This document shows positions 3,163 to 54,866 of a stretch of DNA of 64,000 nt, one piece after another (position 1 is the first letter of the stretch; each line of letters starts with the position of its first letter). Location of the stretch: the NCBI GenBank assembly GCA_000146465.1, contig CP001945.1; one strand, given 5' to 3'. Under the pieces are notes generated by a model, which saw only the letters and a list, made by a program, of their open reading frames with translations, was not told the DNA's origin and ran no database searches. The translations under genes and the position numbers were made by a program.

Positions 3163-4584
3163 ATGGCTACAAAGATTGAGAACGATGTCAAACCACGTTT
3201 GAATGTTTGTTTTATCGGACACGTAGACTCTGGAAAGAGCACTACGGTGGGAATGCTTGCCTATCAGTTAGGAGCGGTTGACAAGAGAGAAATGGAGAAG
3301 TATGAGAAGGAGGCAGCTCTCAACAACAAGGAGTCGTTCTATCTTGCATACTTAACCGACAAGACCGAGGCAGAAAGAAAGAGAGGAATTACAATCACAA
3401 CCACTCTTATTGCTCTCTCTACAGAGAAGTTCGATATCAACGTTCTTGATTGCCCCGGGCACAAGGACTTTGTGAAGAACATGGTGGCAGGAGCATCGCA
3501 GGCAGATGTGGCAGTAGTGATTGTTCCAGCATCTGGATTTGAGTCCTGTGTTGGGGTTGGAGGGATGTTGAAGACACACATTATGATTTCAGGGATTCTC
3601 GGATGCGAGAAGCTGATTATATGTGTCAACAAGATGGACGAGATTGCCGAGGACAAGAGGAGGATGGAGAAGTTCAAGGAGGTATCTGATGAGATGCGTA
3701 GAATTGTCAAGAGGTGCCACAGAGATTCAAACCCTATTGTCCTGCCTATATCTGCGTACAAGGGAATCAACCTGACGAAGAAGGGAGAACACTTCAACTG
3801 GTTCAGTGGATGGAAAGAGAAGGAAGGATCGGAGGTGATACACACTCTTGAGGAGGCTCTGGATTACCAGAAGGTACCTGAGAGACACAACGACAAGCCT
3901 TTAAGAATGCCGATCACCAAAGTTTGCTCTATTGCAGGAATTGGTAAGATTTTCACAGGGCGTGTGGAGTACGGAACCATCACACCAAATCTTAAGATTA
4001 CAATTCAGCCGGCAGGAGTGGTGGGAGAGACCAGGTCTGTGGAGATCCACAACAAGCCAAGGCCCATGATTCCATGTGGAGAGAACTGTGGAGTTGCTCT
4101 CAAGGGAGGAGTTGTTGGGGAAATCGACAAAGTGGATGCAGGACACGTGATTTCGGCCAACGATGAGAACAAGGCCATAGCATATCCTGGGGCAAAGATC
4201 AGAACAATTGTTGTTGCCAGGCCAAAGGGATTGTCGGTAGGATATACTCCACAGATCAACTTTGGAAACTGCCACTCTCCAGGAAGGATTGCCAAGATTA
4301 TTTCAAGAGTAGTTGGTGGAAAGGAAGTACAGGAGAACCTTGAAAACATTGGAAATGGACAGACGTTTATTGGAGTTGTTGTTTTCCAGAAGCCGTTGGT
4401 TGTCGATAGGATGGACAAGTTCCAGAACCTGGCAAAGTTTGCACTTATGGACAGTAACGGGGTTGTGGGAATTGGAAATGTCATGGAGCCTCTTACCAAA
4501 GACCAGCTTCTCAAGGAGTACGGGATTGACATAAATGAAGATCCCAAGGCAGCAAAAAAGGCAGCCGGTAAGAAGAAAGCATAA
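3163..4584 (+). CDS. TEF1: Translation elongation factor 1-alpha
   Basis: G-domain motifs GHVDSGKST, DCPGHKDF and NKMD. The ORF begins directly with the GTPase domain. The 473-aa length and lysine-rich C-terminus (KAAKKAAGKKKA) fit EF-1alpha. A TATA-like element and GGGCCCC lie just upstream of the ATG. Confidence 0.88.
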   Translation: MATKIENDVKPRLNVCFIGHVDSGKSTTVGMLAYQLGAVDKREMEKYEKEAALNNKESFYLAYLTDKTEAERKRGITITTTLIALSTEKFDINVLDCPGHKDFVKNMVAGASQADVAVVIVPASGFESCVGVGGMLKTHIMISGILGCEKLIICVNKMDEIAEDKRRMEKFKEVSDEMRRIVKRCHRDSNPIVLPISAYKGINLTKKGEHFNWFSGWKEKEGSEVIHTLEEALDYQKVPERHNDKPLRMPITKVCSIAGIGKIFTGRVEYGTITPNLKITIQPAGVVGETRSVEIHNKPRPMIPCGENCGVALKGGVVGEIDKVDAGHVISANDENKAIAYPGAKIRTIVVARPKGLSVGYTPQINFGNCHSPGRIAKIISRVVGGKEVQENLENIGNGQTFIGVVVFQKPLVVDRMDKFQNLAKFALMDSNGVVGIGNVMEPLTKDQLLKEYGIDINEDPKAAKKAAGKKKA

Positions 4585-10754: not shown

Positions 10755-10902
10755 TTTTCTTAGAAGGGCTAAGGGATCAAGTGGTATTTAGAGAACGAAG
10801 TTTGGGGTGTTTCATGTAGTGTGCCAAATAACAAAATGCTGAATAGTGATATTTGAAACGTCCATAAAGACATAAAGGCAGGCGAGAAAGAAAATCTCGG
10901 GA

Positions 10903-11900
10903 ATGATAACTATCAAAGAGGCCTTGAACCAAGCTATAGATGAAGAGATGGAAATGGATAAGAGAGTGTTTGTTCTTGGGGAGGAGGTGGGCATATCTGG
11001 AGGAAACAAAGGAGTCACTAGAGGTCTATACGAGAAGTATGGAAAGTGGAGAGTTCTTGATACACCCATCAGTGAAATGGGATTCACAGGCCTGGGTGTG
11101 GGGCATCCTATCTAGGCCTAAGGCCGATAATTGAGTTTATGACATGGAACTTTGCATTGCAGTCTATTGACCATATAATCAACTCGTGTGCCAAGACACT
11201 GTACATGTCTGGGGGGAAAGTTAGTTGCCCTATTGTATTTAGAGGGCCTAATGGATTCAATCCTGGATATGCAGCTCAACACACACAAGACTTCTGCAGC
11301 TACTATGGTGCAGTCCCCGGTCTTAAGGTTGTCGCTCCCTTCACAGCAAAGGATCATAAAGGATTACTGAAATCGGCGATCCGAGATAACAATCCAGTGG
11401 TATTTTTGGAAAATGAGACGCTTTACGATGATACATATAAGGACATAGAACAGGGATACATGCAATCACTAGATAAAGCTGTGATCGAAGTAGAAGGGTG
11501 CGACGTCACTCTTGTAGGAATTTCACTTTCAGTAAAGACATGTCTGGAGGCTGCTAAGGCACTGAAAGATCTAGGGATTTCTTGTGAAGTTATCAACCTC
11601 GTGTCGATCAAGCCCATAGATAAACAAACATTATTGACCTCTGCCAAGAAGACAAAGCATGTGTTTGTAATTGATTTTGCATGGCCATCGTTCAGTGTTG
11701 CTTCCGAGATTTCTGCAATAATACACGAGAACTGCTTTAAAGATTTGATGGCTTCTGTTCAAAGAATAAACGCAAAAGACATTCCTACTCCCTACTCAGA
11801 GAAAATAGAAGCAATGGCGTTTCCAACATGTACAGATGTCATTGATTCGGTGGTTGAAGTCTATAAAAGCACCTCCAAAGATAATAAATTAGGTCTTTAA
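10903..11900 (+). CDS. PDB1: Pyruvate dehydrogenase E1 component beta subunit. The reading frame is interrupted by a 1-nt indel in a G4 run (11100-11103), splitting it into ORFs 10903..11115 and 11139..11900
   Basis: [16 protein letters not shown]...VFVLGEEVG...[27 protein letters not shown] in frame 1 continues as [38 protein letters not shown] in the -1 frame. Together they are colinear with PDHB (…[20 protein letters not shown]…). The rest of the transketolase C-terminal domain is intact. Confidence 0.8.
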
Positions 11901-32906: not shown

Positions 32907-33197
32907 TCAAACCGCAACAGTCGGAGCCTCTTGGCTATTGATGGACTCGTCGGTAAAAACCAGCTCTTCCCTCAGCCTGGACTCTCCAAGTGGAGTTAGA
33001 AGGAAGTATGAGTGTCTCCACACGTGAATTTTCTGGACATATCCATAAGAGATCATGGTCTTCATAAATGCCTTCAGTTGCAGGTTGGGAATTTCGAGAT
33101 CCTTATGATTTCCAAGAACAGTGTCCTCAAGAAGCAAAGCTTTTTTCTCGAGTAAACGTCTCTTTATCTTGTACTTATTTACTGTCGGTACTAGCAT
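32907..33197 (-). CDS. RPS10: 40S ribosomal protein S10 (eS10)
   Basis: MLVPTVNKYKI…LQLKAFMKTMISYGYVQKIHVWRHSYFLLTPLG matches eS10 (…[24 protein letters not shown]…). Confidence 0.85.
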   Translation of the reverse strand: MLVPTVNKYKIKRRLLEKKALLLEDTVLGNHKDLEIPNLQLKAFMKTMISYGYVQKIHVWRHSYFLLTPLGESRLREELVFTDESINSQEAPTVAV

Positions 33198-33573
33198 TTC
33201 TCTACAAATTAGCCTTGATACATAACCAAATCACTTACCTTCTTTAAAGCCCTCAAGTAAATTTTTTTTTATTGTTTATTCGGCCAAGATACTTGAATGG
33301 CACCTCTCCTGCCCCCGATGATCAATCCAAAGCTATTGATGGTGACTGCAACAACAGCATATGTGTTTGTATTTTACACACTGGCTATAAGAGTAAGTTT
33401 TGTCCACGTAATTTCTAGCCATTGTTTCATAGTCCAACTGCAGCCGAAGATGTCCTAATTACCTTGTCTTCGATTGTCTTGTTTAGTGCCCTCCTGATCC
33501 ACGCTATTTTAGGGTTTGAAGAGGAAAAGACAAAGCATATGTAGACATTCAGCATATAATGCCCGAAGTACTA

Positions 33574-33930
33574 CTAGATAGCATCGGTATTGAGATTCAT
33601 CCACCTCAAGTACTGCTCGGACATAGAGTGTATTTCGATTCCGACCACTTGAGGAGCTTCATATGGATGGTCTTCCGCCATGAACTCTTGGATTTTAACA
33701 AACAAGGAGGAAAAGGTCTTTGCAGCCAATTTGTACTCTGTCTCTCTTTTAACACTTCCATCCCAAGAGTAAACGGAGGTTATCTTGGATATTTGGCAGC
33801 ATGCAGCAAGCCTTCTATTGACTAACTCGTACGAAGCTTTTTCAGCTGATTCTCGGGTTGGATATGTTGTGAATACAACGAATGGTTTCCTCTGTGGGAT
33901 ATTGTCTGGATGGTGCATGGTTCCCTCCAA
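33574..33930 (-). CDS. CUTA: CutA1 divalent-cation tolerance protein homologue
   Basis: VVFTTYPTRESAEKASYELVNRRLAACCQISKITSVYSWDGSV…DHPYEAPQVVGIEI is colinear with the CutA family. Confidence 0.75.
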   Translation of the reverse strand: MEGTMHHPDNIPQRKPFVVFTTYPTRESAEKASYELVNRRLAACCQISKITSVYSWDGSVKRETEYKLAAKTFSSLFVKIQEFMAEDHPYEAPQVVGIEIHSMSEQYLRWMNLNTDAI

Positions 33931-53923: not shown

Positions 53924-54781
53924 ATGAAGCTTGAATTTTCCAACGGCTTTGAAGACTTGGCATTTGTCTTAAAATACTTCAATGCCGATTCCAGCCTGGA
54001 AAAGGTGGAAAGCGGGTTAAGGCTTACCGATGGGGGAGAAGAATACGTGGGACTAGACAACGTATTGGCTTTTTTGTACAGAACTTACGAGCCAGGACAC
54101 AACAATAAAAGTATCAAAGAAACAAAGAAATTGAGGGAAAGTCCAGAAGTGAGGAAGGTAGAGGAAAGTATATCAAGTCTTGTATCATTTTATGGGCTGT
54201 ATCGTCAGATGATTACACAAGGCATATTAAAAAATAAGGTGTTTATCGACCAAATGGTTGAGCATATTAGGCCAAGAATGAGTCTGGACTCTGATTTTCA
54301 ACTGCTAGACATACAGGTTGGAGAGATAGTAGACATTGGCGATGTTCAAGGACTTGATAAGCTTTATTCTGAGAGGGTTGTTGCAAAGGAAGAGATAAGA
54401 GTTTTAAGTGGGCTGAAAGGCTATGTAGAAAAAGAACATCTATTAGGAAACAAATTCCTCTTTGTTACCAACATGAAGCCAGCCAAATTCAAGGGAGAGA
54501 CTTCTGAAGGAATGATTCTATGTGGGAAGGATAAGGATGGAAAGATCGAGCCTATTTTGATACCAAAAGAGATACAGAATGGGGCCAGGTTAGGACTAGA
54601 AGGATTTGAAATGCTTCTTAATGACTTTAGTTCTGGAAAGGTTGACATGAGAAAGAGTGGATATGCCCATGCTCTAGAATCGTTTAAGATAATAGACCAT
54701 TTCCTCACTTTTAAGGGCATAAAGGTCACTTGCGAAGGAAAGTTCATCAAAACTCATACTTCCGATGGCCTGGTAAGTTGA
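53924..54781 (+). CDS. ARC1: Arc1p/EMAP-like tRNA-binding aminoacylation cofactor (GST-like N-domain plus OB-fold tRNA-binding domain)
   Basis: Myf/tRNA_bind domain LDIQVGEIVDIGDVQGLDKLYSERVVAKEEIRVLSGLKGYVEKEHLLGNKFLFVTNMKPAKFKGETSEGMILCG. Confidence 0.7.
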   Translation: MKLEFSNGFEDLAFVLKYFNADSSLEKVESGLRLTDGGEEYVGLDNVLAFLYRTYEPGHNNKSIKETKKLRESPEVRKVEESISSLVSFYGLYRQMITQGILKNKVFIDQMVEHIRPRMSLDSDFQLLDIQVGEIVDIGDVQGLDKLYSERVVAKEEIRVLSGLKGYVEKEHLLGNKFLFVTNMKPAKFKGETSEGMILCGKDKDGKIEPILIPKEIQNGARLGLEGFEMLLNDFSSGKVDMRKSGYAHALESFKIIDHFLTFKGIKVTCEGKFIKTHTSDGLVS

Positions 54782-54866
54782 TTAAATCGACTTCAAGCGA
54801 TGTAACTAAATAGTGTTTTCCTTGATTCTAAGATAAATAAAATTTCCAGCCTGGGGCGAGGAATAG

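Follow-up and report, generated by a model that had tools for sequence, protein, structure and literature searches.

The spacer of 376 bp between the genes for ribosomal protein eS10 and a CutA-like protein on chromosome IV of Encephalitozoon intestinalis ATCC 50506 was analysed within a 64-kb window, the whole stretch of DNA to which all coordinates below refer. We are highly confident that positions 33318–33544 of the plus strand are the annotated two-exon gene Eint_041345, which lies head-to-head with eS10 and carries one U2-type GT-AG intron of 26 nt. Comparison with Encephalitozoon cuniculi and Ordospora colligata demonstrates that the gene, the position of the predicted intron and its splice signals are conserved in both. 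Coordinates of the features are collected in Table 1.

A protein search with the spliced product returned one match, the 'uncharacterized protein Eint_041345'; the spliced translation from 33318 is 100% identical to it over 66 aa, and it has the identical exon junction (LAIR/PLFH), with splicing joining codon 25 (Arg) to Pro-26. Cluster look-up gave its accessions (AHL30092.1, XP_009161837.1 and UTX45116.1) together with two orthologues, ECU04_1357 of E. cuniculi GB-M1 (CCI73930.1, NP_001402487.1) and M896_041830 / CWI41_041820 of O. colligata. The gene and its intron are already in GenBank and RefSeq in three species as an uncharacterized protein, and nothing here is new to the public record; the initial annotation of the stretch, which had called the gene unannotated and the intron new, was mistaken on both counts. 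The list of 32 new small coding sequences in Belkorchia 2015 (PMC4589312) does not include the gene, which fits its earlier annotation, and its locus tags and accessions are not mentioned in the searchable text of papers.

The E. cuniculi orthologue is 67–69% identical to the spliced product and the Ordospora orthologue 36–42%, and the locus beside eS10 and the intron position are common to all three. In E. cuniculi the gene likewise sits between eS10 and CutA and spans 225 nt for 66 aa; in O. colligata it is head-to-head with eS10 and spans 314 nt for 96 aa. A HMMER scan through the whole set of 1.84 billion representatives recovered the orthologues of E. cuniculi and Ordospora and, apart from these, just two artefacts from repeat proteins; a word-index profile search again returned the three proteins from a collection that holds no E. 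hellem or E. romaleae protein. The gene encodes a conserved membrane micro-protein that is restricted to the Encephalitozoon/Ordospora lineage.

Splice signals and conservation of the intron

The intron fits the published expression GTA[AG]GT..TAATT[N0-4]AG, which Heinz et al. 2012 obtained from introns of E. cuniculi and N. ceranae (PMC3486916), and its length is inside the range of 22–76 nt described for the 37 introns of E. cuniculi (PMC3629993). With a strict pattern, GTAAGT-N5-35-TAATTT-N0-2-AG, there are two occurrences in the window against 0.12 expected, and both are in this spacer. The relaxed published expression is matched twice against 1.43 expected in the window, which on its own is not above chance. 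We regard the motif count as weak evidence, and conservation across species as the decisive evidence for the predicted intron.

In a three-way alignment, introns of 26 nt (E. intestinalis), 24 nt (E. cuniculi, GTAAGTTGCCTATCTAATTTATAG) and 23 nt (O. colligata, GTAAGTTATTATTGTAATTTTAG) are all in phase 0 and all stand directly after the same LAI[R/K] codon, with GTAAG and TAATTT(N)TAG invariant; exon 2 opens with CCA (Pro) in each of the three species. Retention of the intron causes a frameshift in E. intestinalis and O. colligata, whereas in E. cuniculi the frame then runs into a TAG. The C-terminal tails of the unspliced products are unrelated from species to species. Because retention breaks the frame in all three, only splicing yields the conserved exon 2. 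Purifying selection on the coding sequence is shown by the ratio of non-synonymous to synonymous substitution rates (dN/dS, Nei-Gojobori method), which for the pair E. intestinalis and E. cuniculi is ∼0.26 over the whole coding sequence and 0.17 when exon 2 is taken by itself in the spliced frame. A check on conservation of the open reading frame (ORF) and intron in related genomes had been proposed in the initial annotation, and both are kept in E. cuniculi and O. colligata.

The intron shares with other short Encephalitozoon introns the GT-AG ends, the GTAAGT donor, the TAATT(T) close to the AG, a short length (26 nt) and the loss of frame upon retention. Its branch context is GTAATTT, as in Ordospora, whereas CTAATTT is found in E. 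cuniculi and in the intron-like element of the eS10 leader described below. A further difference is that its host is not a ribosomal protein gene. We note a further intron-like string in the window, GTAAGT...TAACTAAATAG (41 nt, 54773–54813, plus strand), which lies at the extreme 3′ end of an ORF at 53924–54781, has a branch motif other than the canonical TAATTT, and is probably due to chance.

As to expression, ECU04_1357 is listed in the E. cuniculi RNA-seq table of Grisdale et al. 2013 (PMC3629993) with 118, 89 and 92 fragments per kilobase per million mapped reads (FPKM) at three time points. That paper states that splicing was confirmed for all annotated E. cuniculi introns, that 30 of the 37 introns are spliced in less than 50% of transcripts, and that each disrupts the frame if retained; ECU04_1357 is not named among the 37 in its accessible text, so that the support from this source is indirect. 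Independent Logan contigs over the E. intestinalis locus are unspliced, genomic and identical to the window, and no spliced cDNA contig is on record by exact look-up of the Eint_041345 protein.

A predicted two-helix membrane protein

Two segments with Kyte-Doolittle peaks above 1.6, of transmembrane grade, are present in all three orthologues, which upholds the initial annotation in its description of a small plus-strand gene for a protein with two transmembrane helices. AlphaFold2 with the three-sequence alignment gives two helices (4–27 and 31–65) at a mean predicted local distance difference test score (pLDDT) of 80, and the product is predicted to be a hairpin in which an acidic loop of 10–12 residues connects two transmembrane helices; the loop, RPLFHSPTAAED, is net acidic. 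Both termini would be cytosolic. The Encephalitozoon proteins end in EKTKHM (E. intestinalis) and KKAKLV (E. cuniculi), and both endings fit KxKxx, which may act as a COPI-dependent retrieval signal for the endoplasmic reticulum (ER). The annotated Ordospora protein weakens the case for this topology and for COPI retrieval, as it has no KxKxx and a longer Cys/Lys-rich tail. At 3190–3314 of its locus sequence the Ordospora orthologue has an extra Cys/Lys/Asn-rich C-terminal extension of 30 aa, absent from both Encephalitozoon proteins.

Judged from the KxKxx signal, the small protein would be resident in the ER or early secretory membrane, where it would most likely have an accessory or assembly role as a subunit of some membrane complex. 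Since splicing of short Encephalitozoon introns is inefficient, much of its mRNA probably remains unspliced, and this would give only a truncated one-helix peptide.

Searches for a known family were made with the 73-aa product from the upstream ATG and with the three orthologues. No relevant family was found in Pfam at E≤10, and a PDB sequence profile search gave no match at E≤10. None of the three orthologues matched the VMA21 profile (PF09446) at E≤10, and yeast and human Vma21, used as controls, match it at 2e-9 and 2e-22. Pfam likewise gave no match to DPM2 (PF07297), ATP_synt_H/Vma9 (PF05493), Ost5 (PF05251) or SPC12 (PF06645), and control sequences of such small families are recognised by their own Pfam profiles at 1e-9 to 1e-32. 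Comparison by hhalign with ten small two-helix families gave no signal, with probabilities below 2% for Vma21, DPM2, TMEM258/Ost5, Vma9/ATP6V0E1, TMEM167, SPCS1, ssSPTa and Pmp3; one separate hhalign comparison with yeast Vma21p gave a probability of 3.9%.

Alternative readings of the locus

Three other readings of the spacer concern its splicing, its start codon and the family of its product. It is scarcely credible that the spacer holds no spliced gene, so that it would be only the eS10 leader and promoter and/or the functional product would be the unspliced one-helix ORF, with the intron motif a coincidence. It is true that the left part of the spacer, from 33198 to ∼33290, is taken up by the leader, leader intron and promoter of eS10, that matches to the relaxed intron expression are by themselves at chance level in 64 kb, and that short Encephalitozoon introns are mostly retained; but exon 2 is kept as protein solely in the spliced frame in three species, despite the differing intron lengths, and the stop inside the E. 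cuniculi intron and the unrelated unspliced tails are already contrary to this reading, as are the comparative data as a whole. The initial annotation had allowed that the region might be merely the 5′ untranslated region and promoter of eS10; this holds for the left third of the spacer only. As to the start codon, we consider it fairly likely that translation begins at 33318, to give the 66-aa product, and not at 33297, the start chosen initially, which is probably 21 nt too far upstream. Translation from 33297 would give a 73-aa protein with a cytosolic N-terminus seven residues longer, and we hold this to be rather unlikely. The ATG at 33297 lies within a conserved TTGAATG block, and in E. 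intestinalis as in E. cuniculi it is in frame with no intervening indel. However, the seven codons that it opens (MAPLLPP in E. intestinalis, MPFPQSL in E. cuniculi) differ more than any other stretch of the spacer, and their changes are mostly non-synonymous, the proportion of non-synonymous differences (pN, 0.48) exceeding that of synonymous ones (pS, 0.28). In Ordospora these codons are absent, there is an in-frame TGA upstream and the start is at the ATG aligned to 33318, which argues against a start at 33297. Directly before the 33318 ATG is a CCCCC run (33312–33316), and a CCC(C) run stands there in all three species; 'CCC-like' signals upstream of starts have been described for these genomes (Belkorchia 2015, PMC4589312), and such a run is the usual Encephalitozoon signal just 5′ of starts. 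The second ATG is also the one used in all three public annotations. With the start at 33318, positions 33297–33317 are probably 5′ leader and possibly an alternative N-terminal extension.

As regards its family, we think it improbable that this microsporidian protein corresponds to a known small two-helix ER factor from which it has diverged extremely far. On this account Vma21 is the best candidate and DPM2 the alternative, and the protein would bind its partner complex within the ER membrane and cycle by way of COPI retrieval. Vma21p, the yeast V-ATPase (vacuolar ATPase) assembly factor, resembles the predicted hairpin in having ∼70 aa, two transmembrane helices and a C-terminal signal of the di-lysine type, and the 66 aa, two predicted transmembrane helices, putatively cytosolic termini and C-terminal KxKxx of the E. 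intestinalis protein match the general description of Vma21p (reportedly that of Hill and Stevens, 1994) and of DPM2 (reportedly that of Maeda, 1998). Yeast Vma21p (8eau_p, chain identity confirmed) is also the top Foldseek match in PDB, with TM-scores of 0.55/0.62 over 56 columns; its E value of 1.8 is non-significant, and the fold match is not specific. In contrast to these likenesses, the protein has no detectable sequence similarity to Vma21p, and the di-lysine motif is lacking in Ordospora. DPM2, Vma9/ATP6V0E and Ost5/TMEM258 are alike only as small two-helix proteins and give no Pfam, PDB-sequence or hhalign signal, so that the DPM2/Vma9/OST-type identity proposed initially finds no support. 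If the counterpart reading were true, inefficient splicing of the mini-intron would hold down the output of a Vma21-like factor for the V-ATPase or a DPM2-like factor for dolichol-phosphate-mannose (DPM) synthase.

The remainder of the spacer and its setting

All 376 bp of the spacer are fully accounted for: the leader of eS10, intron included, is followed by the promoter that the two genes share, by the small gene (227 nt) and by 29 nt up to the CutA stop. By direct reading and by script, the ATG at 33297, the GTAAGT at 33393, the intron end TAG at 33418 and the stop at 33542–33544 are all where the initial annotation had placed them, and its 26-nt intron is the one whose junction is used by the annotated protein and whose codon position recurs in E. 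cuniculi and O. colligata. Its product lengths of 74 aa spliced and 54 aa unspliced are each one too high; the spliced product from 33297 has 73 aa and the unspliced ORF 53 aa.

Table 1. Features of the eS10-CutA spacer and its neighbours in the E. intestinalis window.
Feature	Position	Strand	Remarks
eS10 coding sequence (ribosomal protein, divergent neighbour)	32907-33197	-	Pfam S10_plectin 8.4e-14
Intron-like element in the eS10 5′ leader, 37 nt	33202..33238	-	GTAAGTGATTTGGTTATGTATCAAGGCTAATTTGTAG; stops 4 nt short of the eS10 ATG
Probable divergent promoter and leader, common to eS10 and the small gene	33239..33296	.	A/T block and GCCCTC
Upstream in-frame ATG and six codons (MAPLLPP)	33297..33317	+	Not conserved as protein
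Exon 1 from the upstream ATG (33297-33299), 96 nt	33297-33392	+	Encodes MAPLLPPMINPKLLMVTATTAYVFVFYTLAIR
Exon 1 as annotated for Eint_041345 (favoured start)	33318..33392	+	Encodes MINPKLLMVTATTAYVFVFYTLAIR, transmembrane helix 1
Spliceosomal intron, 26 nt, phase 0	33393..33418	+	GTAAGTTTTGTCCACGTAATTTCTAG; read directly and by script
5′ splice site GTAAGT	33393-33398	+	
Branch motif TAATTT	33409-33414	+	Putative branch A at 33411; then CT, then AG
3′ AG	33417-33418	+	Intron end TTCTAG at 33418
Exon 2, including the stop TAG (33542-33544)	33419..33544	+	Encodes PLFHSPTAAEDVLITLSSIVLFSALLIHAILGFEEEKTKHM and stop: putatively luminal loop, transmembrane helix 2, KxKxx tail
CutA-like ORF (convergent neighbour, annotated product 114 aa)	33574-33930	-	Pfam CutA1 1.1e-29; 100% identity to the annotated protein

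The intron-like element in the eS10 leader has the form GTAAGT...CTAATTTGTAG and is kept in E. cuniculi (37 nt) and in O. colligata (33 nt, where it abuts the ATG). The short exon upstream of it has no ATG. An intron in this position is invisible to annotation of coding sequences only. Between this element and the small gene, an A/T block (AAATTTTTTTTTATTGTTTATTC, 33259–33281) has hardly changed between E. intestinalis and E. cuniculi, and at 33249–33254 there is GCCCTC, which reads GAGGGC on the minus strand; the nearby 18 nt at 33300–33317 have diverged further than any other part of the spacer. By analogy with the signals described in Belkorchia 2015 (PMC4589312), the A/T block and the GGG/CCC motif may form a divergent shared promoter signal of the AAATTT-like and CCC-like kinds. 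We note that CutA is missing from the Ordospora colligata locus.

With a crude measure of ORF cover the spacer is among the two longest internal gaps of the window. It had been described as the largest spacer; the other gap, 10755–11138, is longer at 384 bp but is a frameshifted gene and not a true spacer. The gene concerned, similar to pyruvate dehydrogenase E1-beta (10903–11900, plus strand), is split into ORFs of 70 and 253 aa by a -1 frameshift at a G4 run (11100–11103), and one added G would restore the frame. The same split was found in the independent Logan assembly ERR13302946. It could reflect a pseudogene, a strain mutation or slippage.

If the eS10 leader intron is real, two of the genome's very few introns share one spacer of 376 bp. 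The intron of Eint_041345 is one of a few dozen in one of the smallest eukaryotic genomes and was found from the raw sequence alone, as was a gene that falls below the usual ORF cutoff. Knowing which complex its product belongs to, for example that of V-ATPase assembly or DPM synthase, would close a small gap in the picture of the minimal secretory apparatus of microsporidia.
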